A DNA stretch of 64,000 nucleotides from Nitrospinae bacterium AH_259_B05_G02_I21 (GCA_027717595.1 JALLOF010000002.1:29324-93323), one strand, 5' to 3'. Counted from the stretch's first letter, positions 1,219-32,548 are shown. Numbers and translations: made by a program. Notes: a model not told the origin generated them from the letters alone.

Positions 1219-2289
1219 CTATTGGCCAATAACCTCCGTCCGCTTCGTGTAGGCCTCCAGCTGGATAACCCTCCCATCCACTTCGAAGCGTCGTACCTCG
1301 GTCTTTCGCGGAAGGTGGCAGGCCTTGCAGGGTGTGAGAAGCTCCACCCCACGCCGTTGCCTGTGGATTGCCCGAGCCTCGGTGAGCCGCTCCCCATGCC
1401 ATATTTCATAGAGGGACTGGGTGTTCACGTCTCCCACGATGTGACGGCCGAGCTCATCGTTGATACAGAGGAGCACCTTCCCGTCAGAGCCGATGACGAG
1501 CCGCTGGTAGAGCACGGGGCAAGAGAACCCTTCCTCGTACTCGATATCCGTATCGAGGTGGAGGTAGTCCATCAGAGGGTTGGTAGAGACCTGATCCACG
1601 ATGGGCTCGAAGAGATCGTAGAAGGCCTGGGGGTCATCCTTGATAGCGGGCCAGACCGTCTGGACTTTGATGACCGGCTTGGCTGACCCCCGGCGCTCCT
1701 TGATTGCCTTGTAGGTGCGAATCTTCTCCACCGCCTCGTCGAACTTGGCTGGCCGGCGGATTTTCTCGTACGTCTCACCCACGCCGTCAAAGGAGATGGT
1801 TAGCCAGTCGAGGCCCGCATCAAGCATCTCCTCAAACTGGGTCGGGTTGAGACGCAGGCCGTTGGTCAGGGTGGAGACTTCCTTGATTCCCTTTTCCTTC
1901 GCGTAGCGGGTAAGCTCGACAATCTTCCGATGAAGGAACGGTTCGCCCCGGAAAGAGAGACGGATGGAGTAGGTCCCGTAGTGTGCGCACTCATCGACAA
2001 TCTTCCGAAAGAGATCGGGATCAATATTCTTGTGAGTGACCATCTTTTTGAAGTCGTCGCTGACCGTGTAGCACATGGGACAAACCATATCGCAGGCGCT
2101 GGAGAGCTCTATGTCTACGTGGTCGGGAAAGCGGCTCACCCTGCCGAGACGAGGATAGATGTGCCACCGGAACCGGTTCGTCAGGTAGCGCACGAAATGG
2201 CCCCGGCCGCGCCCCAGGTTAAACTTCAGCCACTGCAAGGGAGTGCTGAGAGTGAATTGGCCTTTGTTGATTTTCATAGAACCCCCCAA
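1219..2289 (-). CDS. radical SAM protein with C-terminal Cys-rich (SPASM/twitch-like) extension
   Basis: Cx3Cx2C motif (SSACDMVCPMC) near the N-terminus; further Cys pairs near the C-terminus (SCPV...LLCIND...TPCKACH). The start is more likely the internal MKINKGQF (~2277). Confidence 0.75.
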   Translation of the reverse strand: MGGSMKINKGQFTLSTPLQWLKFNLGRGRGHFVRYLTNRFRWHIYPRLGRVSRFPDHVDIELSSACDMVCPMCYTVSDDFKKMVTHKNIDPDLFRKIVDECAHYGTYSIRLSFRGEPFLHRKIVELTRYAKEKGIKEVSTLTNGLRLNPTQFEEMLDAGLDWLTISFDGVGETYEKIRRPAKFDEAVEKIRTYKAIKERRGSAKPVIKVQTVWPAIKDDPQAFYDLFEPIVDQVSTNPLMDYLHLDTDIEYEEGFSCPVLYQRLVIGSDGKVLLCINDELGRHIVGDVNTQSLYEIWHGERLTEARAIHRQRRGVELLTPCKACHLPRKTEVRRFEVDGRVIQLEAYTKRTEVIGQ

Positions 2290-2319
2290 ACCTTTAACAG
2301 AGTAATGAAACTTACCTCC

Positions 2320-3342
2320 TCACTCGACCGGCTTCTCGGCAAAGAGACGGAGGTTGTTGCCCCTCCCTGCCCGATTGATGACGTTTTGCAACTCGTTGAT
2401 GTTCGCCTTTACGAATTGCCTCGCCTCGGTATGGTACATTCCAAAGACTTTCCACGCTTCTTCGCCAAAAACGGAGAGAATTTTTTCCACATCGAGGCCG
2501 TGGGTTTCCTGATGCCGGGTCACAAAGCTAGCCTTTTCAACCATCTTTTGAAGCGTCGCGGGCGTGAAGTAGAGGATATGCAGTTCCCCTTGAAAGAACG
2601 GCGCGTGGACGCTCAGGAAGAGAACCTCCACGCTGTCGAAATTGGGCACATAGATGAACACCATACCTCCCAGCTTCAGTACCCTCCACACTTCGCACAA
2701 CGTTGCCATAGGCCTGGGGAGGTGTTCAAGAACATCCCACATAACCACGACATCGAAGGCCTCGGATGGGAAATTGGCGTCAAGGAGGTCACAGTTGTGA
2801 ATGTTGTCAAGCCCCAGGGCGTCCCGGGCGTACTCGCACCCGAAGCGGTTAATCTCAACCCCCGTAACGTTCCAGCCCAACGCACGGGCTGAGTCCAGGA
2901 AATGGCCGTTGGCTGAACCGACTTCGAGAAGGGTGCCAGGTGTCGGCCTATACGCAGCTATATAGCGCAGGCGCTCTCGGTACAACCGTTCCTGGCGATA
3001 TTTCGCGCTCTTGAGCAGAAGCTCCCGTGCCATGAAATTGTACCGTTCATCGTTGTAAAGCGAGGGAATCACTTGGTCTTTGACACGGGGGTTGATGTAG
3101 ATGAGGCCGCAACGCTTACAGCGGACAAAACGAAATCCATCCCTGAAGAAAAGTTCTTCCTCGTGATCCTTCGCCTCACAGAGATAACAGGGTACGTCCT
3201 CAGCTAAATCGTCCTTAAGGCACCCAGTCTGGTCGTCCACCAAGGACTCCAGCACCTGGCGACGCATGTCCCTGAGAGCATCCATCACGCCCTCGGGATG
3301 AAGTTCAGACATATCAATAGGATCCTGTTTAGTCGGCTTCAT
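2320..3342 (-). CDS. class I SAM-dependent methyltransferase with N-terminal zinc-ribbon
   Basis: N-terminal CxxC...CxxC (CYLCEAK...CKRCGLIYINPR) followed by SAM motif I (LLEVGSANGHF) and post-I/II motifs (VTGVE, FDVVVMWDVLEHL). Confidence 0.75.
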   Translation of the reverse strand: MKPTKQDPIDMSELHPEGVMDALRDMRRQVLESLVDDQTGCLKDDLAEDVPCYLCEAKDHEEELFFRDGFRFVRCKRCGLIYINPRVKDQVIPSLYNDERYNFMARELLLKSAKYRQERLYRERLRYIAAYRPTPGTLLEVGSANGHFLDSARALGWNVTGVEINRFGCEYARDALGLDNIHNCDLLDANFPSEAFDVVVMWDVLEHLPRPMATLCEVWRVLKLGGMVFIYVPNFDSVEVLFLSVHAPFFQGELHILYFTPATLQKMVEKASFVTRHQETHGLDVEKILSVFGEEAWKVFGMYHTEARQFVKANINELQNVINRAGRGNNLRLFAEKPVE

Positions 3343-5563
3343 GCATCACCTTTGCCATCGATATCAGCTTAGCTGAGAGGAGGCTCTGCAGTGTCTCGGC
3401 CACCCTGTCCGCAGCCCAACCATCGTGAGAGGCTGCATTTTTGTATCGATATTGGTCCTGACATTCCCCGAGGGCTGACCGGAGGGCTTCATCCGTCAAA
3501 AGGCGCTCCAGCGCCCCCGCTAGCCCCATTGGTGTATCCACATCCAACGCCACCCCTGCTGCTGCGTAGCTCTGAGTTTTAGGATAATAGTCCAGGTACA
3601 GGTTGATGAACGGCCTGCCCATGAGGATGGCCTCTAGGCCGATGGTGGAAGGCGCTGTGACTACCACGTCGCTCACAGCCATCCACTCGTAGAGCATCTC
3701 GTCGGTCACGACCACATCACCCATCCCTCGGGCCGCCAAGGCTCGCTCATACCAAGCTTTAGGCACCCCTGGAGGGGCCTTCAAGACCCATTGGACGGAA
3801 GGCAAGGAGTCCCGGGCCTGCAGGAGGCTCTCAAGATAGGGCCCAATGGTGGCTCGATCGACGGTGGCAAAGCCCCGTGGCGGACAAAAGAGCACCACGG
3901 GGCGCTCGGGGCTGAGGCCCCGGCGGGCTAGGATCTCTTCCTTCCGGAAGAGTTCGCCCGTGCGCCGCAGCACGTCGAAGCGAGGGCAACCCGTCACCAC
4001 CACTCGTTCGGCGGGGTAAGTGCTCCTAGTAGTGAGAAGCGTCTTGGTAGCCTCATCGAACACGGCTATCACGTCCGGCAGCAGGTCGAGGTCCCGCGGT
4101 CCATACCGCTTCATATAATCCGAATTCACTGGACCAATCTCCCCGTGCTGCAGCCCGAGGGTGGGAACCCCAGCAGCACGGCAGGCCACGATCAAGGCTC
4201 GTCCCAGAGGCCCGGTCTCATAGCTGATAGCGCAGGCTCTCGGGCGCCATGCCGCAACGAGGGCGTGGGCGGCCTCGATCCATCCGATGATCCCTGTGAG
4301 GTAGTCCTCCGCCAGGAACTGAAACCGCGGCGCCAGAGCCGGCCAGAGATCGAGGCCATCGAAGCGAAAGGCCGAGGACATGGGTGGCGAGGGACTGTTC
4401 CAGAGGGACCGCCGCGCTCGGGCCCACCGCAACCCGCAAACGATCCCTCGGAGAGTAAAGAAGCGATCCATAACCGACCAAGGGACGGTCCGCTCGGCCC
4501 ACAGCCGATGGATGGTCTCCCGCCACCCCCTGCGAACGGAGTACGGCATATCAACTGCCAGCACGGGACCCTGGCCACGGGCCAAAAGCTCTGCAATAAC
4601 TGGGTAGCAAACCGGGTCGGTCCAGGTGAAGGCTCGGGCCATCGGGTCGTAGTCCTTCCGCCAATAGCTGCTTGCCGAGCAAAAGATAATCGGCCGCCTT
4701 TTCGACCACCGGCGACGGACACGCAAGGCTGCCAACCGAGCCAGAGTGCTTCGGAGCCGAGCGGCTCCCCACATCGCCCACATCCCAACGCGCAACCGAT
4801 GGAGAAGCGAGACCAGCCGACCGAGCCAGCGGGAACGCCACGACTTCCACACATTCGGCTTCACCCTCTGGACGGGAATCCCTCTCTTCTCGCTCTCCGC
4901 ACAGAAAACCCGAGCAAAGAGCCACGGGTCTTCTAGAAGCCCAAAGAGGGGCGCCCACTCCGACGAGAACTCCTCCGGGTCGATGATGGCGCACCAATCG
5001 GGCTTCTCTCTCTCAAGGAGGGCTTCGATTTTGGAGCGAACGATCACTAGGTTTTCCAGATCCACAAAGAGGGCCGGAGCTAAAAACTCCCAAAGGGGTA
5101 TGCTCTCGTACTCTATTAACTGACCCAACGCTTGCCCTTCTTCCATGGAACGGCATGGGAGGTCATTAATCCACTCAATAGTAGCGGCTCTATAGTTGGG
5201 CAACCCTCCTTCGTTCAGACCATTATCTATAAATTCCTCACAGAATCCATGAGCCTCTAAAGAGCGCAGTCCCTCGACTCTCCAGGCCAGTGCCTGAAGT
5301 TTTCCCCTGCGACGGCCCTCCGCCACGAGCCTTGACAGCGCTTCCGGATCCTCCGCCCCCGAGACCATGAGTAACCCTCGGGAACCCCAGGAGCTCTCGG
5401 AAAGAGAGGTTCGTGCCCTGTCCTTTCCCAACGAGGAAACGACCTTGGCGCTACGACAAACCATCTCGCTCCATGACCTTTTCGTAAATGTCCTTTTCAA
5501 GCCTCCTCCCACTGACGGCCATCGAATACGGCGGCCCGTTCCCAGCCAAACTGGCCCAGGCAC
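3329..5563 (-). CDS. TagF/TagB-like CDP-glycerol glycerophosphotransferase-family protein with a large N-terminal extension (possible capsule/teichoic-like polymerase)
   Basis: The C-terminal half carries family-like motifs VLFCPPRG (cf. LYaPTwR), WVLKAPPG (cf. KpHP) and VVVTDEMLYEWMAVSDVVVTAPSTIGLEAILMGRPFINLYLDYY (cf. ITDYSS...kP...Dxe.Y). The real start is probably the internal MVSGAEDPE (~5368), which has a GAGGG SD. Confidence 0.5.
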   Translation of the reverse strand: MPGPVWLGTGRRIRWPSVGGGLKRTFTKRSWSEMVCRSAKVVSSLGKDRARTSLSESSWGSRGLLMVSGAEDPEALSRLVAEGRRRGKLQALAWRVEGLRSLEAHGFCEEFIDNGLNEGGLPNYRAATIEWINDLPCRSMEEGQALGQLIEYESIPLWEFLAPALFVDLENLVIVRSKIEALLEREKPDWCAIIDPEEFSSEWAPLFGLLEDPWLFARVFCAESEKRGIPVQRVKPNVWKSWRSRWLGRLVSLLHRLRVGMWAMWGAARLRSTLARLAALRVRRRWSKRRPIIFCSASSYWRKDYDPMARAFTWTDPVCYPVIAELLARGQGPVLAVDMPYSVRRGWRETIHRLWAERTVPWSVMDRFFTLRGIVCGLRWARARRSLWNSPSPPMSSAFRFDGLDLWPALAPRFQFLAEDYLTGIIGWIEAAHALVAAWRPRACAISYETGPLGRALIVACRAAGVPTLGLQHGEIGPVNSDYMKRYGPRDLDLLPDVIAVFDEATKTLLTTRSTYPAERVVVTGCPRFDVLRRTGELFRKEEILARRGLSPERPVVLFCPPRGFATVDRATIGPYLESLLQARDSLPSVQWVLKAPPGVPKAWYERALAARGMGDVVVTDEMLYEWMAVSDVVVTAPSTIGLEAILMGRPFINLYLDYYPKTQSYAAAGVALDVDTPMGLAGALERLLTDEALRSALGECQDQYRYKNAASHDGWAADRVAETLQSLLSAKLISMAKVMHEAD

Positions 5564-5602: not shown

Positions 5603-7471
5603 TCACGAAAGGGATTGCTGGACAACTCTCCGCTCCACGTAACCTGTCTTGCCTGGAAAAGCCAGCTTCGTTTCCAAAATGGGTAGGGTCCAAGAATGCG
5701 CCTTCGCCCCATTTGTGGGAAGGCGGTAAAGCTTAATAGAATTGTTCCATATAACCTCCTCGGAGATCTCGCGCTCTCGACGGACTCTATCCGCCGGACA
5801 AGGAAGGGCGAGGTTGGTGCAAACCTTTAAGGCTAGGTCTAACAGTTCCATCCGCTTAGCGGTGAAAGGATCGGTGTTTGGAAAAACGGCAACAGGGTTT
5901 TGGCCGGGAAGATACGTCGCCATGAAGGCCAAGCGCTCCGGTTTACGATATTGGGTCTCGGAGGTGGCATAATAAAGCGGCAAGTCCAGCAACTCTACAC
6001 GCCTGGTCTGCCCCCACCGCTTCAAGTAGATAGCATTACGGTCGTTTGTGTGGTTCCGCGCTAAGGGGAGATAGGCCTTGGTGCCATGAGCCTCCCATAG
6101 AGCCGGCCTTCGGTGGGTTACGATGGCCTTTTCGCCACGCTCCCTCAGCCAGTGGGCCGCATCCTTGTAGCCAGAGCGAACCCGGTACAGGTAGCCGATA
6201 TGGGCCCCCTGGATTAAAAAGAAGGCCGCGAGAGCCAAAGCCAAAACGAAGGACCCAAGACGCCAGCGTCGGATAGCTTCGGCCGCCGCAATTCCTCCTG
6301 AAAGGGCTACGAAGATGGAGACATACGCCACGTTTCGTGGGTATGGAAGTTTGGAGGCGAAGACGAAGTAAAACAAAAAGGGGAAACCTAAACCGAACAA
6401 TACTAACAACTCTTCCGGCCTTCGGCCCTTCCACCAACGTCGGGCCACCATTGCCGTTCCAACGACCGCTAAAGCGGAGACCACCAGCCCCTCGCCGTAG
6501 AGGAAAGGCTGGATGCCGTAGGCCGAAATCTTGCTTCGAAAACCGTAGAAGAAACCTGAAGGGGACAGACTCCTGTGGCGGACCTTCCAAAGCTGTTCAA
6601 AAAATGTCATAAAGGGTCTGTCGTCGGTAAAAAGCCAAGAGAGATTATCACCCAAGACAACCAGAAAGTATGTAAGGGACGCCTCCACAATCACCAGGCA
6701 AATCAGCGCTCCCCCCAGCAGGGGGATCATTTGCCTTGCTAACGCCCGCCATTTGCCTTGCTTCAAAAAAGCGTAGATGGCCACAAAGCCCACGACGAGC
6801 AGATATGGGACGGAGCTTGGATGGATGGCAAAGGTAGCCCCGAGGCCGAATCCCGTCACCCAACCGAGAAAGCGCTTGGAGCGACCATCGGGAAAGCGCA
6901 AACTCGAAAGATAAGCAATCAAAGTCAAACAAAATACAAACATGGCGGCAGTTTGAGCGTAACCGCTACGCGACCAAATGATGTGATAACCCGAGGCGGC
7001 CATGAAAAGGGCGGCCGCCAACGCAGCCAATTCGTCCTCCCAGAGCTGGCGAGCGAGGAGAAACATAGTCAACACCGTAGCGCTTCCAAAAAGTGCGCTC
7101 CAGTAGAGAAGTCCATTGTATCCGGCATTGGGAACAACCAAGTAGAAGGCGCTTAAAAGGGCGTGATAAAGAGGCTTGTAGTAATAATTGCTTATGGGAA
7201 AAACATGGCGCGTTTCCAAGAACTGGATCACGTCTGTCCGTGTCTCCGATGAAAAGCCCGGCCCCTCAAAGGAGCGATCACTTAGCCAGGTAAGAAGAAG
7301 GGCAGTAGTCTTGGGGGAGAAATAATAAGCCGCCTCATTGTCATACTTCAGGCCCCGAACGTCTAGCTTGTAGACCCTAAGACCTAGGCCGAGCATTACG
7401 ATGAGGGCAAGACAAAGGGTAACCCATGGTCTAAGCCCATGCCTGTGGGGCGACTGAAAGGGAGAACTCAC
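5603..7471 (-). CDS. GT-C fold polytopic membrane glycosyltransferase (ArnT/PMT_2-like, putative)
   Basis: 622 aa with more than 10 hydrophobic helices. An acidic-dyad/aromatic motif (KYDNEAAYYF) sits in the first extracytoplasmic loop, as in ArnT/PMT-type GT-C enzymes. Confidence 0.5.
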   Translation of the reverse strand: MSSPFQSPHRHGLRPWVTLCLALIVMLGLGLRVYKLDVRGLKYDNEAAYYFSPKTTALLLTWLSDRSFEGPGFSSETRTDVIQFLETRHVFPISNYYYKPLYHALLSAFYLVVPNAGYNGLLYWSALFGSATVLTMFLLARQLWEDELAALAAALFMAASGYHIIWSRSGYAQTAAMFVFCLTLIAYLSSLRFPDGRSKRFLGWVTGFGLGATFAIHPSSVPYLLVVGFVAIYAFLKQGKWRALARQMIPLLGGALICLVIVEASLTYFLVVLGDNLSWLFTDDRPFMTFFEQLWKVRHRSLSPSGFFYGFRSKISAYGIQPFLYGEGLVVSALAVVGTAMVARRWWKGRRPEELLVLFGLGFPFLFYFVFASKLPYPRNVAYVSIFVALSGGIAAAEAIRRWRLGSFVLALALAAFFLIQGAHIGYLYRVRSGYKDAAHWLRERGEKAIVTHRRPALWEAHGTKAYLPLARNHTNDRNAIYLKRWGQTRRVELLDLPLYYATSETQYRKPERLAFMATYLPGQNPVAVFPNTDPFTAKRMELLDLALKVCTNLALPCPADRVRREREISEEVIWNNSIKLYRLPTNGAKAHSWTLPILETKLAFPGKTGYVERRVVQQSLS

Positions 7472-8654: not shown

Positions 8655-9470
8655 CTAGCCCTTTTCTGCCACCAACAACAGGCCGCTTCCCTCTTCTTCG
8701 CAAACCGAAGCGGCCCTTCCAATCCACGGGCCGTGGAGGTATTTGACCAGCCTCCTCGGCAAAAGACCCGGGCGACCAAGGATCCTCTCAATCTTAGCGC
8801 TAAGCCACCTGGAAGGAAGAAGTAACTCGAACAACCTGTGGCTTCGTTTATCAACGTAGTAGCGATGTAAAACTACATGAAGACCCACCTTCCTTAACTT
8901 TTCCTGCCACTCCTCTAACGAAAGAACATGAAGATGGGCGAATTTAGAATTTACCCACTGAGCCGACCAGCGTCCCAGCGATGCGAGTCCTAACGCCTCA
9001 AGGAAGTTCCTCACCAAAAGCCAATCCCCAAAGGCGGGATTCGGCACAGTCATAATTAGCCTGCCCCCTGGCTCCAAGACCCGGACGACCTCTCCCAACG
9101 TTTCATCCAGAGGCTCTACATGCTCAAGGACGCTGTTGGAAAAGACCGTCTTAAAAGATTCATCAAAGAAGGCCAAGGCGCTACTATCTCCCTTGACGAG
9201 ACCCCGGTAATTGGCCCTAGCCTTCGCCCGGTTAAGGTGAGAGGCAGCCAAATCGAGCCCTACTCCCACGGGTCTATCCACCAGGATTGAGGTGACCAAC
9301 CCATCACCACAGCCCAAATCCAAAAGGGGCTCTTCAAGGGTCACATCGGAGAGGGCCCGGATCTCGTGGGTCCTCCAGAGGGCGACGGCTACTGAATATT
9401 CCTCTAGAAACTTGAAGGGAACCCCATCGGCATTCACAATAATAACTCCTTTATAAGCCAAAATCAGCAT
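8655..9470 (-). CDS. class I SAM-dependent methyltransferase
   Basis: Motif I (LLDLGCGDGLVTS); motifs II/III (FDESFKTVFSNSVLEHV, VLEPGGRLIMTVPN). Confidence 0.7.
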   Translation of the reverse strand: MLILAYKGVIIVNADGVPFKFLEEYSVAVALWRTHEIRALSDVTLEEPLLDLGCGDGLVTSILVDRPVGVGLDLAASHLNRAKARANYRGLVKGDSSALAFFDESFKTVFSNSVLEHVEPLDETLGEVVRVLEPGGRLIMTVPNPAFGDWLLVRNFLEALGLASLGRWSAQWVNSKFAHLHVLSLEEWQEKLRKVGLHVVLHRYYVDKRSHRLFELLLPSRWLSAKIERILGRPGLLPRRLVKYLHGPWIGRAASVCEEEGSGLLLVAEKG

Positions 9471-9900
9471 CTCGTCAAGGCAAAGTGAAAGGCCTTATTG
9501 GAAAAGGGTACAGCATGCTCAACACCTACCACCTTCAATCCACGACTCCTAGCAGCCTCGAGAAAGTGGCCATAAGCACACCCTACTTCCAGAAGCCGCC
9601 CCTTGGCTTTCCAGCCCTCTACAGTATCCAGCACGGCTTCAAAAAAGCGGATCTTCACCGGCATGTGGTCTAAATAACCCTGATAGCCCCCCCCCTAACT
9701 TCACTCCGATTGTAAAAGTACCCGGGCCTGTACCGGCCTTGGGCAGTGTGAGGCTGTATCCGTGGGCTTACGTAAACAAGGCCGCATCCCCTGCACCAGA
9801 CTATCCGCTCCAAGCCTTTGCTAACCAAAACTCTACTGCTGTCCACACCACAGATGGAACACAGGACAGCTTCATATTTGTTAAAGATGTTAGGTGCCAT
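9464..9900 (-). pseudogene. remnant of a zinc-ribbon methyltransferase (paralog of 2320..3342): zinc-ribbon ORF 9670..9900 plus motif-I fragment 9464..9664, separated by a frameshift at a C9/G9 tract
   Basis: 9670..9900 encodes CSICG...CRGCGLVYVSPR (zinc ribbon). 9464..9664 encodes LLEVGCAYGHFLEAARSRGLKVVGVE (motifs I/post-I) and then stops. The two frames differ by +1 across the homopolymer 9687..9695. Even when fused the product would be only ~150 aa. Confidence 0.5.
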
Positions 9901-9909: not shown

Positions 9910-10629
9910 TTACTTCACGAAGAACAGATACTTTAGCCAAGCATAAACGAATCGATAACCATCTCTCCAAATGTTTATCTTGGAATCCCCGTGCTTTCTT
10001 CGAAACTCATGGGTGGGGACCTCCACGTATCGATACCCCCTCCGTAGGGTCTTGATAATCATTTCTTCCTCAATGGTAGCCATGTTTTCCTGCAGCTCCA
10101 AGCCCAAAGCCACATCGCGCCTTATAGCCCGGAAGCCGTTTTGGCTGTCGGTTATGTGAACCTTGCAGACCCAGTTGATACCGATGGTTATGACGGCGTT
10201 TCCGGCCTGTCGCGCAAAAAGCTCTAACTTACCAAACAGCTCCTCGCTCCCTCCTAACATTCGAGAACCGCCCACATGATCCGCCTGGTCCTCCAGAATG
10301 GGACCAATGAGCTTAGGAATATCTCTTGGATCATGGGAACCATCGGCATCTATAAAGACCAATACATCGCCCGTAGCTTCTTTGACCCCGAGCCTTATAG
10401 CATCGCCCTTGCCCTTTCCATTATCCAGAGTAACCCAGACCCCGTAACTCTTAGCGATGTCTCGCGTCTTATCGGTCGAATGGCCGTCCACTACCAATAT
10501 TTCATCGGCGAACGGCTTCACCCCTTCAATAACCTCACCAACCGTTTTTTCTTCATTCTTGGTAGGAATGACAACGGAAATATTCACAGGGCTACGCACC
10601 CCTGAAACCCTCACCCTGGGGAACCCCAA
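9910..10629 (-). CDS. GT2 glycosyltransferase, dolichyl/polyprenyl-phosphate sugar synthase (DPM1-like)
   Basis: ISVVIPTKNEE...VVDGHSTD...DADGSHD, a GT-A DxD architecture typical of Dol-P-Man/Glc synthases. Confidence 0.75.
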   Translation of the reverse strand: MGFPRVRVSGVRSPVNISVVIPTKNEEKTVGEVIEGVKPFADEILVVDGHSTDKTRDIAKSYGVWVTLDNGKGKGDAIRLGVKEATGDVLVFIDADGSHDPRDIPKLIGPILEDQADHVGGSRMLGGSEELFGKLELFARQAGNAVITIGINWVCKVHITDSQNGFRAIRRDVALGLELQENMATIEEEMIIKTLRRGYRYVEVPTHEFRRKHGDSKINIWRDGYRFVYAWLKYLFFVK

Positions 10630-24271: not shown

Positions 24272-25246
24272 TCACCACACCGCCTCCGGCTCCTGCGCCG
24301 CCATAGCCTCCAGAGGCATCCAACGAAACACATCCGGGTAGCTGGACCAGCACGATACGTGAGCTTCCACCTCTCGGCGAAAAGCAGGCAGGTCGTAGTC
24401 ATGAAAATGGAGCAGGCCCACCCGGGGGGCATGATGTGCCAGTTGAGCCAGGGCCGTCATCTTGGGGACCACCCGCAATGGGCTGACTGTGGCACCGACC
24501 AAATTCGGGAGCGAGACGAGATGGGTCGCAGGGGGCACGCGGACTGGGAGGCCGGGAGGGGGTGGCTGGGCGAGGGTGGTACCGCCAAAAGTGTTCCGCC
24601 CATCGAACCTGAGACTACAATCTATGACCACGCCATTCGCCTCTAACGTCTTAACGACCACAGGGGGAAGAAACCACCAACCCGCCGTGTAGGCCGTAAC
24701 CTTGAATCCCTTCTCAGCAAACCAGGCCAACTCCTCGAGCATCTGTGCCCGCACCACGGCCTCTCTTCCCAAGAGGGTGCGCGGGCCTATGGGTACTAGA
24801 TCGGGCTCCCACAACGCCCGCATAGGGCCGGCGGAGAAACGTTCCCGCTCTGCCACCATCGCTCTGTCGTCCACAGAAATGGTATCGAAGAAGTGACCGT
24901 GGTAGGCTAGGTCTGCCTCATCCGCTATTCTCTTCACCCGACCGGCGAAGGTTGTCTCTTCGGTCCCTACGGTCGCCATCAACCGGGCTGTCTGAGGACA
25001 GCGGGGAGTGGTCACCCCAACCACCGCTCGCACACCCGCAGTTCGTCGGAACCACCCGACTAAGGCCAGCAGCGCCTCAAAAGTGGTTTCCTGGGCGACG
25101 GCCTCGGCGTGAACACAAAAATTGAGGTCCACCGGACCCATCCCTGGCGAGAAGACCGGGGGTCTCAGTCGGCGCCATAGCTCCAAAAGGGCATGCACCA
25201 CCCGCTGGCGAGTCGAGCGGGGCGTGGCCAGCAATGCTCGGTTCAT
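24272..25246 (-). CDS. hypothetical protein (no confident family assignment)
   Basis: 324 aa ORF co-oriented with the operon and with a coding-like composition; no motif I can name with confidence. Confidence 0.4.
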   Translation of the reverse strand: MNRALLATPRSTRQRVVHALLELWRRLRPPVFSPGMGPVDLNFCVHAEAVAQETTFEALLALVGWFRRTAGVRAVVGVTTPRCPQTARLMATVGTEETTFAGRVKRIADEADLAYHGHFFDTISVDDRAMVAERERFSAGPMRALWEPDLVPIGPRTLLGREAVVRAQMLEELAWFAEKGFKVTAYTAGWWFLPPVVVKTLEANGVVIDCSLRFDGRNTFGGTTLAQPPPPGLPVRVPPATHLVSLPNLVGATVSPLRVVPKMTALAQLAHHAPRVGLLHFHDYDLPAFRREVEAHVSCWSSYPDVFRWMPLEAMAAQEPEAVW

Positions 25247-25267: not shown

Positions 25268-25859
25268 CTACCGGACCTCCACGAGGCGCTTGATGTTTTT
25301 GTAAGTCTTCGGGCAGAAGAGACCCACCGTCCTCGTAAGCCGATGGAAATCCTCGGGGTCGTGGCCGTTGATGAAAACGACGATGCCGTCTAAGGAGCTC
25401 TGGACGATCGGCTCAATATATCGCTCAAGCATCATTCCATTGGAAAAGGTTTTCACGATCATCCGCTTGTGAACGGCTGCGTCCTTGACCATGCAGAAGA
25501 GGTCTTTATTGAGCAACGGCTCCCCGGAGCCGATGACATTGATGCAAATAGTTCGGTCGAAACGATCGAAAGTGTACTTGAAGGTTTCAAAGTTGATATC
25601 CTCGGTCGTCCGTTGATTCCAATCGAAATCATCAGGGGATGATGTGGAATTGGATCGGACACATGGAGCAGGCAAGATCGCATCTACTGGTGGTGACGAT
25701 GGAGAGAGTCACCGGTCGGTGTGCAACCACTTTACCCCGTCGTGCAAATCTCGCGTGGAGACAATTAATCTTCTAATCTTCTAACCCCAAGTAAAGGGCC
25801 ACCGCCAGGCGCCAGCCACCAGCCACCCCCCAGACATCGCGGGCCGTGAGCACTTTCAT
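25268..25859 (-). pseudogene. degraded partial duplicate of the radical SAM gene 31466..32548 (N-terminal ~195 codons, multiple frameshifts/stops)
   Basis: DNA and protein similarity to 31960..32548 is visible from the start codon (…atcgcgggccgtgagcactttcat vs …atcgctggccgtgagcattttcat). The Cx3Cx2C region reads TTSRCDLACSMCP but is interrupted by stops and frame changes. The in-frame fragment 25268..25675 matches EDIDFETFKRTVDRFDR...NIIGAGEPLLNK of the intact gene. Confidence 0.65.
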
Positions 25860-27055: not shown

Positions 27056-28600
27056 TTACCCGGTGTAACTAGCTACATCTTTCAAGTCTATGACGATTGG
27101 ATCTTCGATCGGCTGGAGGCGATCATACTTGCCAAGACCCCATGTGCCGTCCGGTACGCGCGCCAGACGGAGCCCCCTATTAAGGTTTATTTTGTCCACG
27201 TTTTTATCATAATTAAGACGGTAGTGTATGGAACGGCGAATGTGGCGGAAAACATTTTTAGCATCGTAACGCAGTACCAGAAGCCACTTCATGATGCGAT
27301 GGGCATTAGGGCTCAAGCTTGAATCGTTGTAGGTTCCTGCCTTAATGCTAATTATTTTCCTGGCCAGCTTCCTCTCCTCGGCGGTAAACTCGGGAGTTTC
27401 GTAAGCTACCTCGTCATACTTGTCTCCGATGGAGGACATGGAATATGAATCGGAAAGGGTGTTGACGTCGTCGTTGTTAAGCACCCAGTCCGCTAGGGGT
27501 GTTCCCGTCATGTGTGTCGCCGTGGAATAAGCAAGCACATCGAAGCCCATTTTTTGAGCCTTTTCGAAGGAAGTGACAGTTTTCTTCAGCGTGTCGCCGG
27601 GGAGTCCTATGATCATGTACCCAAAAATCTCCCAATCATACTTCCGCATCTTCTTCACACTTTCGATTATTTCCTCCATCGTCTCGCCCTTGTTAATCTG
27701 GGCGTACACTTCCTCGTCTAAGGATTCCACTCCGACCCAAATACGCTTGCATTTGGCACGATACATCTTTTCCAAAAGATCCTCAGGCGCCCTGTCAGCC
27801 CTGAACCCTTGTATAACCCAGGGCAGGTCTATGTTTTCTTCAATAAGAAGATCGCAGAATTCAACTATCCGCCTTGGCCTCATATTGAACGAAGCATCAA
27901 CAATATGGAAAAGGCTAATATTGTACTTCTCCTTGGCCATTTTAAGTTCTTCGATTATATTCTCCGGGCTGCGGGCCCTCCATTTCTTCACAGGCATAAA
28001 ACAGAATGAGCAGCTGTAAGGACAGCCACGGCTTGTATTAATTGGATACACATCCATTCCCTGACCGCCGTAAATTTCATAGTCAGGGAAGAGTAACTTA
28101 TCAACATTTTTATCGTTCACCCTTGCCATGTTCTCCACAAGGCGGTCTCCATCCCACCACACCAAACCAGCTATCCCTTCCAACTCCTTTTTACCGTTTT
28201 TCCTTTCTAGGGCGTCAACCAATTCGACCATGGTCACCTCGCCCTCTCCTAGAACAGCAAAGTCTGCGCCCGTCATATCCTCCAACGATTTAGCACCTAG
28301 TCCCAGTATCTCGGGGCCACCTACCACAATTTTCCCGCTGTAATATTTCCTGAGCTTTTCAATATACTCTTTGGCTGATTTATACGTTATGTTATAGACA
28401 GGGAACCCTATGAGACCGGGGTTATAACCACCCACAGCTTTTTTAATCCGCTCATCGACAGGACCTGTCCTGATGTTTACCGTATCAAGCAAGCTGACCT
28501 GGTGGCCGGCCGCCCTCAGATGGGCCGAAAGATAACCTAATCCCAGGTTAATACCGGTACTCTCCGTGGCACCAAAAAGATCAACCAATAATATTTTCAT
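27056..28600 (-). CDS. B12-binding (cobalamin) radical SAM protein (class B radical SAM, putative C-/P-methyltransferase-type)
   Basis: N-terminal B12-binding Rossmann-like domain (MKILLVDL...), radical SAM Cx3Cx2C (TSRGCPYSCSFCFM), 514 aa. Visibly AT-richer than its flanks. Confidence 0.8.
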   Translation of the reverse strand: MKILLVDLFGATESTGINLGLGYLSAHLRAAGHQVSLLDTVNIRTGPVDERIKKAVGGYNPGLIGFPVYNITYKSAKEYIEKLRKYYSGKIVVGGPEILGLGAKSLEDMTGADFAVLGEGEVTMVELVDALERKNGKKELEGIAGLVWWDGDRLVENMARVNDKNVDKLLFPDYEIYGGQGMDVYPINTSRGCPYSCSFCFMPVKKWRARSPENIIEELKMAKEKYNISLFHIVDASFNMRPRRIVEFCDLLIEENIDLPWVIQGFRADRAPEDLLEKMYRAKCKRIWVGVESLDEEVYAQINKGETMEEIIESVKKMRKYDWEIFGYMIIGLPGDTLKKTVTSFEKAQKMGFDVLAYSTATHMTGTPLADWVLNNDDVNTLSDSYSMSSIGDKYDEVAYETPEFTAEERKLARKIISIKAGTYNDSSLSPNAHRIMKWLLVLRYDAKNVFRHIRRSIHYRLNYDKNVDKINLNRGLRLARVPDGTWGLGKYDRLQPIEDPIVIDLKDVASYTG

Positions 28601-28668: not shown

Positions 28669-28930
28669 ACCCGTGTCAAGGTGTCCCCTTTCAAGCGGGG
28701 GCCAGTATGAACCTGAGGAGTCTGATAGGGCCGCAAAAATCTTCCATTGCCGCTGGCTTGAGCCTGAACATTGTCCGACGGGCTACTGCTATCCTAAAGA
28801 GCTGGCACGCATCTATTTAAACCAATTGAAACAGTGGATTTGGATTAAAGAACCAACCTGGGATTCATTCCCTCCAGCGACTCATCTACTTGAGAAGGAT
28901 TTTTCCCTATGCACTTTAAAAGCCCATCGA

Positions 28931-30127
28931 CTAAGATGGGCTCGCGTCCGCAGGTGAGTAGTACCCTGGCCTCGAGTTGAATGCCGCGGTTCGAACCCGC
29001 TGCACCCGCTCTCGCAATCCGCTCGAGTATGTTTTAACGGTCCGTTTGAACGCCTCGAAATCCCCGGGCGCCGGAACTCGCCTGAGCAGGAAGGGATCAG
29101 AACCCCGTACGTTTACTCCGCAGTCGTTAGTAATAGCCCCCTTGTACCCTAGCTGCTGTGCAAGTGAGATTAACAGCGAAGAATGCTCCCCGAAAGGCCA
29201 GCAGATGTATTTGCATGGTCGATCGAGGTATTCTTCGAGGAGGGCTTTCGAGCGCACCAATTCCTCGACGACTCTTCGGAGATACACCTCATGGTCCTCG
29301 TAGAAACCCGCTTGCCCGTGCTCTTTTCGATACTCTTCGACAATGCGCCAAAGCTTCGATTCCAATTCCGCCTGCACCTCAGTGGAGGTTCCAGGGCATG
29401 AGTTCGTCGCGAATTCCACCAAGCGTTCTACCAAGCGTTCATCATCAATGTAACGTCTGGCAACAAGGGCGGAGCGCCAGGGGTGGAGGGGTAATCCAGA
29501 CCTGAGATCGCCTCTTGTAGAGGCAACGGCTTCCCAGGGCGGGGTCGAATCGAGCAGGAAGCCAGTGATCGTCTCATCATAGAAACATGGACTGTGGGTA
29601 TGAGTGTGGGAATAGATATCGATGAGCCCGCTCTTCACCATCTGTTTAACTTCTGACCAGTTTACGTGACCCCCACCGAAGCGCCCGCCTGAATACGCCC
29701 TAGCGTTTGCAACCTCATGGGTCGGGATGGAAGGAAGCTGGTCGAGGGTAACACGCCCTTCCCAGACATCATAAAGATTAGGTCTAGTCTCTCCTTCTCC
29801 CGCCTCCACCCGTTCTGTGATGAGGCATAGGGCGGCCTTCAACCCATACTTCTTCAGGATGGGATAAGCGTAGACCCAGTTATCCAGATAACCGTCGTCA
29901 AAGGTGATGACTACTGACGGCGAAGGAGGAGGACGGCGACCGTAAAGAAATCGTATGAGTTCAGAGATATGAAGAGTGTAGTAGCCCTTTTCGGCTAGAT
30001 ACCGCATCTGCTCCTCAAAGACCTCAGGGCTCATAGAGAAGCTCCGCCCACCGGTTTCGAAGTTCACGTGATGATAAGCAAGTATCGGGGTTCTGCTAAA
30101 AGCAAACAATAGATATCTCCTTGCCAC
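28931..30127 (-). CDS. polysaccharide deacetylase (CE4/NodB family)
   Basis: NodB motif 1 VITFDDGYLDNW; 398 aa with a CE4-like core and a C-terminal extension. Confidence 0.75.
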   Translation of the reverse strand: MARRYLLFAFSRTPILAYHHVNFETGGRSFSMSPEVFEEQMRYLAEKGYYTLHISELIRFLYGRRPPPSPSVVITFDDGYLDNWVYAYPILKKYGLKAALCLITERVEAGEGETRPNLYDVWEGRVTLDQLPSIPTHEVANARAYSGGRFGGGHVNWSEVKQMVKSGLIDIYSHTHTHSPCFYDETITGFLLDSTPPWEAVASTRGDLRSGLPLHPWRSALVARRYIDDERLVERLVEFATNSCPGTSTEVQAELESKLWRIVEEYRKEHGQAGFYEDHEVYLRRVVEELVRSKALLEEYLDRPCKYICWPFGEHSSLLISLAQQLGYKGAITNDCGVNVRGSDPFLLRRVPAPGDFEAFKRTVKTYSSGLRERVQRVRTAAFNSRPGYYSPADASPS

Positions 30128-30183
30128 GGGAGGCCTTTTTATTCATATCTCCATTGTGGTTTCATATTTTATTCCGATTCCAC

Positions 30184-31533
30184 CTAAGCGGCTAGCCGGT
30201 CGAGTAATTCCGCCAGAGCCGCGGTCGCAGCCTGCCGAGTGTAGTGGTTAACCACGGCGCCGTCCCCACCGTAAGGTAGGCGTCCTGTATGCTCGATGGC
30301 CGTTACCCATTTCAGGAGACAATCTTTGACCTCCGCGACAGAAGTCGTCAGCACGCCAGCACCGCTGGCGCGGATCAGCCGGCTCATCTCGCCTTCCATC
30401 GCATGCAGAAGCAGGATGGGTCGCCGGGCCCCCAGGTACTCGAAGAGCTTGGACGTGTGACAGCCCTCCCCGCGGGGCCCTGTCCATGGAACGGAGAGGA
30501 GCGCGGTGGTGGCCTGCTGGAGACCCAATGCCTCCTGATGGGAGACCGGTGCGCAGCGCTCTACACAGGCCGAAACACCGTATTCGGTCGCCAGGGCCTC
30601 GACATCGACCATCTCGAAACCCTCCATCAGATAAAATCGGCAGCGGACCTGCTCCGGCCGCAGGCGGCCCCCAGCGAGAAGCTCGGCCAGGGCCTGAAAG
30701 AGGACCGAGGGGTCCTGATGGCGGGGATGAAGCCTTCCCGTGTAAAGGAGCTCGAGCCGCTTGTGGCGAGTCGGCCCTGACGAGACCGGGTAGTCGGTCG
30801 GGTCGAACCCGTGAGGGATGACCATCACGCGGTCTGCCAGGTCTGGGTGAGAGCGGGCAAGGCCCTCCGCCCAGGTCTCGGACAGCGTCACGATGGCATC
30901 AGCATCGGACAGCACCCGTCCCTCTAGCCACCGAAGGGAGCGCCGCTTCCAAGTGGACCAGTCCCGGTAGTGGTCGTCGCTCCAGGGGTCCCGCAGGTCG
31001 GCGATCCATGGGACGCCAGCTTCCCGGGCGAGTCGGCGGGCGATGAGGTGGGCCGACTCGGGCGGAGAGGTAGAATAAACGGCCTCCACAGGCTCTTCGG
31101 CCAACAGCCGCCGACCAGCGGCCAGGGCGGGCTTGATCCACCCACGTTGATCGTCGGGAAACGTCAAGAGTTCCCGCACCGCCCGCCGGAGCCCCGACAC
31201 CGACCGAAGGGGGCCCTCCCCCACCCTCCCCGACACCTGAGGGATCAACGGCCGAGAGCGCCTGAAGAAGGCAAGGCAATCCCGCTCCCCCGTGGCGACG
31301 ACGCGGACGCCGACTCCCAGGGAATCTCGAACCGTGGGGGTGAGCACCACTGGATGCCAGCCGTGATCTGGCAGGTACTGGGCGAATTTCGACACCCGGA
31401 GGCCCCCCACGCCGTCCGCGTGGGTCCAGTGGTAGGTCACCACGAGCACGGACCGGGTAGTTGGCTCACCAAGGGTTAACGCCATAATTCTCTGGACAGA
31501 CCTTGCATGGGTCGAAAAGGACGCTTTTGTCAT
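30184..31533 (-). CDS. GT-B glycosyltransferase (GT4-like)
   Basis: N-terminal VLVVTYHW...GGLRVSKFAQYL (GT4 N-domain); C-terminal LYTGRLHPRHQD...SKLFEYLGARRPILL (glycos_transf_1-like). Confidence 0.65.
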   Translation of the reverse strand: MTKASFSTHARSVQRIMALTLGEPTTRSVLVVTYHWTHADGVGGLRVSKFAQYLPDHGWHPVVLTPTVRDSLGVGVRVVATGERDCLAFFRRSRPLIPQVSGRVGEGPLRSVSGLRRAVRELLTFPDDQRGWIKPALAAGRRLLAEEPVEAVYSTSPPESAHLIARRLAREAGVPWIADLRDPWSDDHYRDWSTWKRRSLRWLEGRVLSDADAIVTLSETWAEGLARSHPDLADRVMVIPHGFDPTDYPVSSGPTRHKRLELLYTGRLHPRHQDPSVLFQALAELLAGGRLRPEQVRCRFYLMEGFEMVDVEALATEYGVSACVERCAPVSHQEALGLQQATTALLSVPWTGPRGEGCHTSKLFEYLGARRPILLLHAMEGEMSRLIRASGAGVLTTSVAEVKDCLLKWVTAIEHTGRLPYGGDGAVVNHYTRQAATAALAELLDRLAA

Positions 31534-32548
31534 CCGTCAGGAAACGGGCCCGGCGGTTCTGAAAGAAAGTACTGTTCCAGACCTCAGCATCAGTAATCTT
31601 GCCGTTGCCTTCCATGTTGAGAAGCATGATGGAGCAGCTCGAGAAATTCTGCGCCCCGTCCACCCGCAGCTGGTCGAAGTGGCAGGAACACTGCTTGGTC
31701 GTCTGGGCAGGGTCGAGGAGGGTAGGCAAGACGACTTTGCCCTGCATGTTGGAGGGGACAACTGTCCGCAGGAACTCGACCATATCGGTGTCCTGGACGA
31801 AGAGGCTCCGCTCCTCGGCACGGAAACCATCGAAAGGAGCCGAGAGAAAGTTGCACAAGAAGACCTGGTCCACCCCAACCTCGTCGGCAACCCGGAGGAA
31901 CTCGGGAATCAGAGGCCAGTTCTGCTGATCAATAATGAAGGATGCTTTGATTTTGACGGGTGAGCCAAGGGCGTTGCGAGCCTCAACAAGACGTTTGACG
32001 TTTTTGTAAATCTTCGGGTAGAGAAGACCAGGCATGCCCGTGATTCGGTTAAACTCTTCGGAGTTGTGGGCGTTGATGGAAACGGTGATGCCGTCCAGGT
32101 GGCTGCGAACGATGGGCTCAATATAGCGCTCAAGCGTCGTTCCATTGGAGAAGGTTTTCACAACCATCTTCTTATGCACGGCGGCGTACTTGGCTATTCG
32201 GAAGAGGTTTTTATTCAGTAACGGCTCTCCCGCCCCGATGATGTTGACGTAGATAGCCCGGTCGAAACGATCGACGGTACGCTTGAACGTCTCGAAGTCG
32301 ATATCTTCGGCCATTTGCTGATTCCACTCGTAATCAACAGGGATGACGCTGGAGTGCGTTGGACACATGGTACAGGTGAGGTTGCACCGGCCAGTGGCAA
32401 CGATGGAGAGGGTCACCGGTTGGTGTGCAACCACCTTGCCCCTCCGAGCAAGCTTAGCGTGGAGGAAGTTTACCTTCTGTCTCCAGGTGAAGGGTCGCCG
32501 CCATACACTAGCCACTTCGCGGAGATCGCTGGCCGTGAGCATTTTCAT
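31466..32548 (-). CDS. radical SAM protein with C-terminal SPASM-like Cys cluster
   Basis: Cx3Cx2C (ATGRCNLTCTMCP); C-terminal CSCHFDQ...SSCS...CKVCPEN. This is the intact paralog of the pseudogene at 25268..25859. Confidence 0.75.
   Translation of the reverse strand: MKMLTASDLREVASVWRRPFTWRQKVNFLHAKLARRGKVVAHQPVTLSIVATGRCNLTCTMCPTHSSVIPVDYEWNQQMAEDIDFETFKRTVDRFDRAIYVNIIGAGEPLLNKNLFRIAKYAAVHKKMVVKTFSNGTTLERYIEPIVRSHLDGITVSINAHNSEEFNRITGMPGLLYPKIYKNVKRLVEARNALGSPVKIKASFIIDQQNWPLIPEFLRVADEVGVDQVFLCNFLSAPFDGFRAEERSLFVQDTDMVEFLRTVVPSNMQGKVVLPTLLDPAQTTKQCSCHFDQLRVDGAQNFSSCSIMLLNMEGNGKITDAEVWNSTFFQNRRARFLTDDKSVLFDPCKVCPENYGVNPW

Follow-up and report, generated by a model that had tools for sequence, protein, structure and literature searches.

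Tailoring of sugars by radical S-adenosylmethionine (SAM) enzymes is established for butirosin, gentamicin, desosamine, blasticidin, and moenomycin, and to our knowledge radical SAM sugar chemistry of this kind has so far been known only from antibiotic pathways. BtrN, the 2-deoxy-scyllo-inosamine dehydrogenase that works with a DegT-type aminotransferase in butirosin synthesis, is the founding "twitch" radical SAM enzyme. A SPASM domain holds two auxiliary clusters and has a C-terminal motif of about seven cysteines; a twitch domain is a truncated SPASM domain with one auxiliary [4Fe-4S] cluster that is fully ligated by cysteine. The moenomycin pathway is reported to combine AsnB-like amidotransferases with the B12-dependent radical SAM enzyme MoeK5 on its uronic acid unit. 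GenK, GenD1, Fms7, and MoeK5 are cobalamin-dependent C-methylases of sugar-containing antibiotics (PMC9204698; PMC12931638). Here, we analyze four intact radical SAM genes, designated RS1, RS2, RSB12, and RS4, in a surface-glycan locus of Nitrospinae bacterium AH_259_B05_G02_I21 (GCA_027717595.1 JALLOF010000002.1:29324-93323); the whole 64,000-nucleotide stretch is referred to as the window. The same proteins are also encoded on contig JALLOI010000002.1 of assembly GCA_027717765.1.

The original prediction, made by a model that read this DNA, was that positions 1219 to 32548 hold an unusual concentration of radical SAM enzymes within a nonulosonic-acid (NulO) and glycan locus. We found that the radical SAM set consists of two conserved glycan modules located side by side, module A with RS1 and module B with RS4 and RSB12, plus the orphan RS2 between them. 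The concentration probably stems from these two modules adjoining in one minus-strand locus, both of them bringing radical SAM enzymes of their own. RS1, RS4, and RSB12 represent uncharacterized families, and the comparison of gene neighborhoods that had been proposed bore out that three of the four intact families recur in glycan loci of unrelated taxa. The class of enzymology is familiar, but the families appear to be new, as do their pathway context and the fused architectures.

Radical SAM genes of the locus

From position 157 to approximately 37,100, all genes lie on the minus strand and are separated by short gaps or overlap. The Pfam inventory of the 1219-32548 region includes a NeuB-family synthase, 4 intact radical SAM proteins, 5 class I methyltransferase domains, 3 GT2, 4 GT4, and 3 GT-C (PMT-like) glycosyltransferases (GTs), a Wzx-type flippase, a CE4 deacetylase, and an AsnB amidotransferase. 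NeuB and AsnB, expected inside the interval, are both present, although just outside its boundaries, and the "about seven" methyltransferases reduce to five intact class I domains (one fused to a GT2) and one frameshifted remnant. The features on which the argument rests are the following:

157-1200, minus strand: NeuB-family nonulosonic acid synthase with NeuB and SAF domains (PF03102, 271 bits)
1219-2289, minus strand: RS1, predicted twitch-type radical SAM protein (PF04055, 71 bits; PF13186 SPASM, 48 bits); the database protein starts at 2277 and has 352 aa
7496-8614, minus strand: RS2, radical SAM/SPASM protein with 7 C-terminal cysteines (PF04055, 80 bits; PF13186, 46 bits)
25271-25859, minus strand: 3′-truncated pseudogene of an RS4 paralog (tblastn with RS4)
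27056-28600, minus strand: RSB12, predicted B12-binding (class B) radical SAM protein (PF02310, 57 bits, residues 12 to 127; PF04055, 92 bits)
31466-32548, minus strand: RS4, predicted twitch-type radical SAM protein (PF04055, 58 bits; no PF13186 match)
32545-34488, minus strand: AsnB-family glutamine-dependent amidotransferase, 647 aa (PF00733, 284 bits; PF13537, 161 bits)

Radical SAM membership was assigned from a PF04055 score above the Pfam gathering cut-off (29.5 bits) together with a CxxxCxxC motif. The four open reading frames (ORFs) are intact, as had been predicted, and their products score 58 to 92 bits and carry the motif at C66-C70-C73 (RS1), C55-C59-C62 (RS2), C193-C197-C200 (RSB12), and C55-C59-C62 (RS4), which places all four, by sequence, in the radical SAM superfamily. 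Family models, to which the original prediction had looked for a possible housekeeping assignment, gave none: in NCBIfam, all radical SAM proteins of the locus score below the curated cut-offs of the housekeeping, cofactor, and peptide-maturase families. The best scores are 95.5 against a cut-off of 380 for RS1, 130.9 against 500 for RS2, 127.3 against 600 for RSB12, and 83 against 380 for RS4, and the equivalogs unmatched at cut-off include MoaA, PqqE, AhbD/NirJ, the mycofactocin maturase, the W-cofactor maturase, BchE, PhpK, HpnJ/HpnR, viperin, and BlsE.

The seven C-terminal cysteines and the PF13186 match of RS2 are consistent with the SPASM label originally given to it. RS4, labeled "SPASM-like," has four invariant C-terminal cysteines, as does RS1 in a 19-member alignment, and both are predicted to be twitch-type rather than full SPASM enzymes with an auxiliary cluster; RS1 had not been credited with an auxiliary-cluster domain. 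The association of SPASM enzymes with peptide maturation consequently does not carry over to these two. RS1, RS4, and RSB12 appear akin to known sugar-tailoring radical SAM enzymes yet fall outside every characterized family.

Against a genomic background of ∼1% radical SAM genes, which is our own assumed and unmeasured estimate, 4 intact genes in ∼27 correspond to a binomial P of ∼1e-4. The recurrence of the arrangements elsewhere is a stronger argument than this value. Extra radical SAM genes were found in 18/80 RS1 loci and in most module B loci (see below); therefore, radical SAM clustering is a recurring theme of uncharacterized families and is not peculiar to this Nitrospinae genome. The GC contents of RS2 (0.49), RSB12 (0.47), and GT2a (0.50) are among the lowest of the locus (window mean, 0.57; neighbors, 0.60 to 0.66), and the low values of RS2 and RSB12 hint at a mosaic of separately acquired genes.

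RS1 and the nonulosonic-acid module

In a scan of one genome per species, the RS1 family was present in 528 species genomes of Bacteria and Archaea, and its gene neighbors were counted by tblastn of locus proteins against the best 80 of the 528 loci. These 80 carriers span more than 12 phyla of Bacteria and Archaea and include cultured Azospirillum, Herbaspirillum, Aquabacterium, Neorhizobium, Ferrovibrio, and Desulfovibrio. Family members have ∼352 aa, with 56 to 68% identity in proteins from Nitrospira, Thaumarchaeota, Sericytochromatia, Patescibacteria, and Deltaproteobacteria and ∼50 to 68% from Archaea to Proteobacteria overall. The neighbors are as follows:

NeuB: 74/80 loci (67 within 3 kb; 71 on the same strand)
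WbqC: 71/80 loci
PseG-like hydrolase: 58/80 loci
SDR dehydratase/epimerase: 56/80 loci
DegT aminotransferase: 52/80 loci
CMP-synthetase: 51/80 loci
PIG-L (PIGL2 type): 39/80 loci
Sugar-1-phosphate nucleotidyltransferase: 32/80 loci
Hexapeptide acetyltransferase: 16/80 loci
NeuC/LegG-type 2-epimerase: 5/80 loci

The linkage of RS1 to NeuB-type NulO genes is tight and widespread, and RS1 is the sole radical SAM gene of the locus tied to a sialic-like pathway. Gene calls are available for RS1-NeuB loci of a thaumarchaeon (L002), Sericytochromatia (L003), and Neorhizobium (L076), on a 3-Mb ENA contig (L004), and on the source contig itself (L005). The last of these encodes, to the left of the window, a PseG-like hydrolase, DegT, WbqC, a CMP-synthetase, a PIG-L protein, an SDR, UGDH, a second PIG-L protein, and a FemAB-like protein; module A comprises positions 157 to 2289 and runs on beyond the left end of the window. 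Two other RS1-type NulO loci carry further radical SAM genes: that of "Candidatus Anammoxibacter" (L022) has five more distant RS1-like paralogs, and that of an Omnitrophota genome (L017) has three B12-dependent radical SAM genes and one more radical SAM gene. The FemAB-like protein of the source contig (L005, 18550-19287) belongs to an aminoacyl-tRNA-dependent transferase family by faint or sub-threshold matches, and its presence with two PIG-L deacetylases beside the NulO genes hints at an exchange of the sugar's N-acyl groups, in which an aminoacyl group is a possible replacement.

As in the pseudaminic acid pathway (PseB, -C, -H, -G, -I, and -F), an SDR dehydratase, a DegT aminotransferase, a PseG-like hydrolase, a NeuB-family synthase, and a CMP-synthetase are encoded on the source contig and at the majority of RS1 loci. 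Unlike in that pathway, the PseI, PseG, PseC, and PseB matches are all below their cut-offs; WbqC, PIG-L, and RS1 are added; and the hexapeptide acetyltransferase is infrequent (16/80 loci, as listed). The NeuB-family protein at 157-1200 misses both relevant curated models (NeuB_NnaB, 315.9 versus 399.65; PseI, 292.5 versus 340.25). The PseG-like protein has only weak GT-B matches in the PDB and a sub-threshold PseG match in NCBIfam, and a PDB sequence search with WbqC gave no match. Module A is thus predicted to encode a Pse-like but distinct NulO pathway.

The 19 aligned RS1 proteins share an invariant core of C65/C69/C72 and C256-x17-C274-x45-C320-x2-C323, with exactly four C-terminal cysteines, a spacing that we take to be that of the BtrN auxiliary cluster. 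The best PDB sequence matches of RS1 are BlsE and BtrN, and BtrN is also the top Foldseek PDB match of its AlphaFold (AF2) model (pLDDT, 88.6; TM score, 0.74 on target), with the BtrN twitch domain aligning to RS1 residues 254 to 325. RS1 resembles BtrN in the four-cysteine C-x17-C...C-x2-C pattern and the single predicted auxiliary cluster, and RS1 loci usually carry a DegT gene, the partner type of BtrN. It differs in its low identity (17 to 18%), in an extra conserved N-terminal segment of ∼50 residues, and in its context, which is a primary cell-surface NulO pathway and not an aminoglycoside antibiotic pathway.

The model TIGR04321 ("spiro-SPASM") aligns through its N-terminal region to the locus CMP-synthetase and through its radical SAM region to RS1 (61 and 47 bits versus a cut-off of 250). 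We read it as a cytidylyltransferase-like domain fused to a radical SAM/SPASM domain, a fusion that would link the CMP-synthetase and RS1 functionally and that suggests nucleotide-activated sugars as a working context. The two activities are separate genes in this locus, in contrast to TIGR04321, which is itself uncharacterized.

The module B cassette

For module B, 38 metagenome loci were fetched with the RS4-family alignment, and neighbors were identified by tblastn. The module spans ∼12.7 to 34.5 kb of the window and consists of AsnB, RS4, GT4d, (CE4), RSB12, GT4c, the flippase, GT2b, a GT-C enzyme, and GT4b. Besides AsnB, RS4, and RSB12, its features are as follows; the CE4 deacetylase had been correctly predicted:

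12708-14078, minus strand: GT-C (PMT_2-like) glycosyltransferase (PF13231, weak)
14069-15316, minus strand: GT4b glycosyltransferase (PF13579/PF13439)
19801-20961, minus strand: GT2b glycosyltransferase (PF00535, 76 bits)
20783-22267, minus strand: Wzx-type flippase, syntenic in module B loci (PF13440, 59 bits)
22504-23901, minus strand: GT4c glycosyltransferase (PF00534, 97 bits; syntenic homologs at 31 to 39%)
28931-30127, minus strand: CE4 polysaccharide deacetylase (PF01522, 78 bits)
30184-31533, minus strand: GT4d glycosyltransferase, conserved downstream partner of RS4 (PF13579/PF13439); the true start is probably downstream of 31533

The recurring order in the surveyed loci is SDR, SDR, DegT, AsnB, [B12-radical SAM], RS4, [RSB12 homolog], GT4d, GT4c, flippase, GT2b, PMT456 (a GT-C enzyme), and a B12-radical SAM::GT4b fusion. 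Reading from 34.5 kb down to 12.7 kb, the window has the same gene order, and the GT4c, flippase, GT2b, and PMT456 homologs are likewise ordered; interspersed extras in the window are CE4, MT5, the RS4 pseudogene, a GT2-methyltransferase fusion, MT3, and PMT647 (GT-C). AsnB homologs (44 to 49% identity) precede RS4 in 15 of the ∼17 loci with sufficient upstream sequence. GT4d follows RS4 in 13 loci, and in another (L107) the contig ends at an intervening B12-radical SAM gene. RSB12 homologs with 48 to 51% identity, probable orthologs, directly follow RS4 in four loci (L098, L101, L105, and L107). Farther along the cassette, GT2b homologs (35 to 45%) come after the flippase in L091, L094, L095, L098, L102, and L105; homologs of the GT-C enzyme at 12708-14078 hold the equivalent position in L102 and L105; and GT4b homologs (33 to 36%) directly follow a B12-radical SAM segment in L091, L095, L098, and L102, where they are fused to that domain. 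Gene calls on the Omnitrophota contig L091 place AsnB, the RS4 homolog, and a GT4 as in the window and reveal a B12-radical SAM gene, another radical SAM/SPASM gene, and a GT-C gene. Module B carriers are Omnitrophota and metagenome contigs, usually with two to four radical SAM genes each.

NeuB was matched in 0/38 RS4-family loci; therefore, the target of RS4 and RSB12 is more likely another sugar of the glycan. The same result led us to reject the reading of the whole region as one NulO cluster. The coupling of radical SAM enzymes to a sialic-like pathway, as originally proposed for the set, accordingly holds for RS1 but does not extend to the separate RS4/RSB12 cassette or to RS2, which lacks a conserved glycan context. 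The amidotransferase at 32545-34488 scores 457 bits against the TIGR01536 cut-off of 267.1 and is assigned by this model to the AsnB family proper; its labeling as PseA-like was not sustained, since no PseA/WbuX-type model is among the nine NCBIfam families that the 647-aa protein matches. Its match to the XrtA/PEP-CTERM amidotransferase model is strong yet sub-threshold (426 versus 817 bits).

RS4 belongs to a family of ∼106 proteins (40 to 56% identity), mostly from Omnitrophota and also from Kiritimatiellae and Thiomargarita, whose alignment has invariant cysteines at C54/C58/C61 and C286-x17-C304-x42-C347-x2-C350. The start of RS4 and the stop of AsnB share 4 nt, an overlap that the homologous Omnitrophota locus also has. 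In its AF2 model (pLDDT, 92.4), the fold matches rank DesII 1st, the peptide-modifying SuiB 2nd to 3rd, BlsE 4th, and then viperin, with BtrN at rank 37; the sole PDB sequence match is 8wm2, which is AbmM. DesII, BlsE, AbmM, and viperin act on nucleotide-linked sugars or nucleotides and are among the top fold matches or the sequence match of RS4 and the matches of RS1. Both differ from these enzymes in identity (13 to 18%) and in scoring far below the cut-offs of the BlsE and viperin NCBIfam models, and the choice among deamination, decarboxylation, dehydration, and sulfur swap is unassignable from sequence.

The dead radical SAM copy, predicted originally without coordinates, was located at 25271-25859. 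It matches RS4 residues 1 to 191 (64% identity over 128 aa and 53% over 183 aa; 53 to 55% by tblastn), with residues 1 to 70 in one frame and 12 to 191 in another. The CDLACSMC motif and the sequence downstream of it lie in different frames, a TAG codon replaces the family-invariant Gln23, and the whole C-terminal half is missing, all of which mark it as a decayed tandem paralog of RS4.

RSB12 has the architecture of a class B cobalamin-dependent radical SAM enzyme, with a predicted N-terminal B12-binding domain and a radical SAM core, as in the class B C-methyltransferases GenK, GenD1, Fms7, MoeK5, Fom3, and QCMT. Its best PDB match is 9CCB (E value, 1.5e-14), the B12-dependent C-methyltransferase QCMT (2026 review, PMC12931638). 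All family scores are sub-cut-off (PhpK, 127 bits versus 600; QCMT family, 82 versus 360). We consider RSB12 a candidate glycan C-methyltransferase. A metagenome scan with RSB12 alone returned no relative; relatives came from a representative-library search and from the RS4-family loci. The nearest homolog (44%) lies beside a flippase and a methyltransferase. Its top 150 representatives include B12-radical SAM::GT4 fusions (P0403, P0423, and P0443), GT2::B12-radical SAM fusions (P0397 and P0468), and a fusion to a class I methyltransferase (B12-radical SAM::methyltransferase, P0408), and one gene of contig L091 (18806-21068) joins a B12-radical SAM domain with GT4/GT1 domains. RSB12 differs from the known class B C-methyltransferases in its Wzx-type surface-glycan context and in its GT-fused relatives, which we did not find described for those enzymes. 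By analogy, the pairing of AsnB-like amidotransferases with MoeK5 in moenomycin synthesis would be the closest chemical precedent for AsnB with RSB12. Giant RSB12 homologs of 1,500 to 2,300 aa, with three or four B12-radical SAM modules, were also observed (P0353, 2331 aa; P0362, 2279 aa; P0363, 2096 aa; P0364, P0369, P0412, P0430, and P0473).

The orphan RS2

The seven C-terminal cysteines of RS2 (positions 298, 305, 309, 316, 353, 356, and 360) are consistent with a full SPASM domain but have a spacing that is not textbook SPASM. Only six homologs, at 34 to 41% identity, were found among 5.8 billion proteins, and we class RS2 as a rare orphan family. The homologs adjoin paralogous radical SAM genes and a GT9 gene in two contigs, another radical SAM gene in a third, and two JmjC/cupin hydroxylase genes in a fourth. 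A glycan assignment of RS2 by neighborhood was tried and rejected, since these contexts disagree and none is a conserved glycan context. The low GC content of RS2 suggests separate acquisition.

Proposed functions and alternative explanations

Sugar tailoring by RS1, RS4, and RSB12 is the most likely function and is supported by synteny, fusions, and fold. Altogether, we judge it probable that the locus combines two glycan modules, each with its own radical SAM sugar-tailoring enzymes, and the orphan RS2. The domains, the cysteines for cofactor binding, the similarity of folds, the synteny, and the fusions are observed, and from them we infer the substrates and all chemical steps.

In module A, the SDR dehydratase, DegT, PseG-like hydrolase, NeuB-type synthase, and CMP-synthetase would act together with WbqC and PIG-L, with RS1 as an addition. 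RS1 would bind a nucleotide-linked sugar intermediate or the CMP-NulO. RS1 usually lies between the early SDR/DegT genes and NeuB, and therefore a step before the condensation is favored. A 5′-deoxyadenosyl radical would abstract a hydrogen from a sugar C-H bond, with the single auxiliary [4Fe-4S] cluster as electron sink, and the resulting keto intermediate might be converted to an amine or an epimer by the neighboring aminotransferase (DegT) or SDR; alternatively, RS1 may catalyze a deamination or deoxygenation of the DesII type. Module B would be a Wzx-dependent oligosaccharide assembly cassette in which AsnB may amidate a uronic-acid carboxylate, RSB12 may C-methylate an unactivated sugar carbon through methylcobalamin, like GenK, GenD1, and MoeK5, and the same nucleotide- or lipid-linked sugar may undergo a second radical step, catalyzed by RS4 (oxidation, epimerization, or deoxygenation). 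C-methylation and epimerization, the specific chemistry originally suggested, are candidate reactions.

Several observations weigh against this picture. The RS1-type cluster proteins are below the curated PseI, NeuB, PseG, and PseC cut-offs, and the sugar product of these clusters is therefore uncertain. The peptide-modifying enzymes SkfB, SuiB, anSME, and EpeE score similarly among the structural neighbors of RS1 and RS4; therefore, the substrate class is not fixed by fold alone. RSB12 falls in a clade with no characterized member, and B12-dependent radical SAM enzymes that do not methylate exist (BchE, HpnJ, and OxsB [PMC12931638]). The module B synteny derives from tblastn on short metagenome contigs, possibly of related taxa, so that the loci are not fully independent, and the RS2 homologs have a non-glycan context, the JmjC/cupin hydroxylases, in at least one case.

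The fold neighbors just named would fit an alternative in which part or all of the SPASM/twitch set serves in peptide or protein maturation (as RiPP-type cross-linkers, epimerases, or anSME-like activators) and acts on a small peptide or a glycan-processing protein instead of a sugar, as would the full seven-cysteine SPASM domain of RS2, its sub-threshold NCBIfam matches (including mycofactocin, PqqE, and sactipeptide maturases), and the hydroxylases beside one of its homologs. However, no precursor-like ORF was seen, the only gap of notable size near RS2 being occupied by a methyltransferase remnant; Pfam detected no sulfatase or RiPP-recognition element among the locus proteins; and RS1 and RS4 resemble BtrN in their single predicted auxiliary cluster, and their synteny with sugar genes is strongly conserved. 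We regard peptide maturation as unlikely. Slightly less credible still is that RSB12, and perhaps RS4, modifies a lipid carrier or membrane lipid (e.g., by polyprenyl- or hopanoid-like methylation) and not the glycan. The sub-threshold NCBIfam matches of RSB12 to the ladderane-lipid B12-radical SAM family (121 bits), HpnJ, and HpnR, the several GT-C enzymes of the locus, and its polyprenyl-phosphate sugar synthase-like GT2 would suit such a role, but these scores are all far below cut-off, the relatives of RSB12 are fused to soluble GT4/GT2 domains and not to lipid enzymes, and neither isoprenoid nor hopanoid genes were seen in the module B cassette.

That the locus is a decaying mosaic, with radical SAM genes on their way to loss and a concentration without functional meaning, appears very improbable. 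The pseudogene at 25271-25859, the methyltransferase remnant at 9464-9900, and the atypically low GC content of RS2 and RSB12 point in that direction, but the four other radical SAM ORFs are full length, every family-invariant cysteine and motif is intact in RS1 and RS4, and the RS4/AsnB overlap is kept as in Omnitrophota. Housekeeping cofactor maturation (MoaA, heme/NirJ/AhbD, PQQ, or a tungsten-cofactor maturase), with the genes merely sited here, is effectively refuted: although the top NCBIfam names are W_rSAM_matur, AhbD, MoaA, and NirJ, every such score is 3- to 10-fold under the curated cut-off (95.5 versus 380; 131 versus 500), no partner genes of the MoaA, heme, PQQ, or tungsten pathways were found, and the synteny with glycan genes extends across phyla. 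Sugar tailoring in two adjoining modules remains our preferred reading.

Other genes of the locus and the window

The remaining genes of the locus are as follows:

2320-3342, minus strand: MT1, class I SAM methyltransferase (PF13489, 82 bits)
3329-5563, minus strand: 744-aa protein, candidate nonulosonic-acid or teichoic-type transferase (no Pfam match; sub-threshold NF046086 and TIGR04396)
5603-7471, minus strand: GT-C (PMT-like) membrane glycosyltransferase (PF02366, 27.5 bits)
8655-9470, minus strand: MT2, class I SAM methyltransferase (PF08241, 67 bits)
9464-9900, minus strand: apparent frameshifted methyltransferase remnant (two short ORFs, sequence inspection)
9910-10629, minus strand: GT2 glycosyltransferase (PF00535, 104 bits)
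10701-11918, minus strand: GT4 glycosyltransferase (PF00534, 93 bits)
15393-17336, minus strand: GT-C (PMT_2-like) glycosyltransferase (PF13231, 33 bits)
17269-18333, minus strand: MT3, class I SAM methyltransferase (PF13489, 93 bits)
18242-19636, minus strand: GT2 (polyprenyl-phosphate sugar synthase-like) fused to a class I methyltransferase (PF00535, 96 bits; PF08241, 68 bits; sub-threshold AglJ/ArnC-type)
24272-25246, minus strand: 324-aa protein without Pfam or NCBIfam match; one 27% homolog at the equivalent position of L101
26003-26923, minus strand: MT5, class I methyltransferase with a Trm112-like N terminus (PF08241, 70 bits; Trm112_arch at residues 1 to 50)

The 744-aa protein has a weak "surface carbohydrate biosynthesis"/BFO_1060-type transferase C terminus. 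Across 643 aa, it shares 26% identity with an Epimerase_2+Glyphos_transf protein that is encoded among the NulO genes of the 3-Mb ENA contig. The two ORFs at 9464-9900, one of 76 aa with a CxxC...CxxC N terminus and the other of 66 aa with a SAM-binding LLEVGCAYG motif, look like the decayed remnant of another class I methyltransferase.

Upstream of the locus, 35808-39874 (minus strand) encodes a tandem pair of Bac_transf initiating sugar transferases along with two TPR proteins, an arrangement similar to exopolysaccharide (PEP-CTERM-type) loci. An 822-aa ORF at 43092-45560 (plus strand) oddly pairs a PMT_2 (GT-C) region with a Ribosomal_L30 Pfam match (residues 573 to 627, 42 bits) and may be mis-joined. 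A PD-(D/E)XK nuclease (47924-48748, minus strand) and an LPG_synthase_TM-family membrane protein (51093-52145, minus strand) lie downstream of the glycan region and have no connection with the radical SAM set. Neither the Rfam nor the tRNA scan of the 64-kb window gave a match, and promoter and terminator scans were close to the shuffled expectation and were not used.

Implications

A full-text literature search, whose coverage left out most subscription journals, returned no report of radical SAM enzymes in NulO or Wzx-type surface-glycan loci, nor of these families. The one related item was a table for Campylobacter fetus that contains phase-variable radical SAM genes, unannotated, amid methyltransferase, SDR, and formyltransferase genes (PMC6321876). 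A wider reading, possible although somewhat short of probable, is that RS1 performs the first radical SAM step in NulO biosynthesis and yields a new class of sialic-like sugar, and that the AsnB/twitch-radical SAM/B12-radical SAM cassette, with or without a fused GT, makes radical-modified (e.g., C-methylated) sugars in ordinary surface glycans.

If this is true, a structurally new class of sialic-like sugar would be produced by species numbering in the hundreds, among them Nitrosopumilus, Nitrospira, anammox bacteria, Pelagibacteraceae, SAR202, and Omnitrophota. The GT-fused B12-radical SAM proteins and the multi-module B12-radical SAM proteins of ∼2,000 aa would be new enzyme architectures for biocatalytic C-methylation. 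Cultured carriers of RS1 exist (Neorhizobium sp. LjRoot104, Azospirillum doebereinerae, Herbaspirillum sp. 3R11, and Ferrovibrio xuzhouensis), and the question is therefore directly testable. The RS1 family is present in abundant marine and freshwater nitrifiers, and its product could be a widespread, undescribed surface sugar that affects recognition by phages and grazers.

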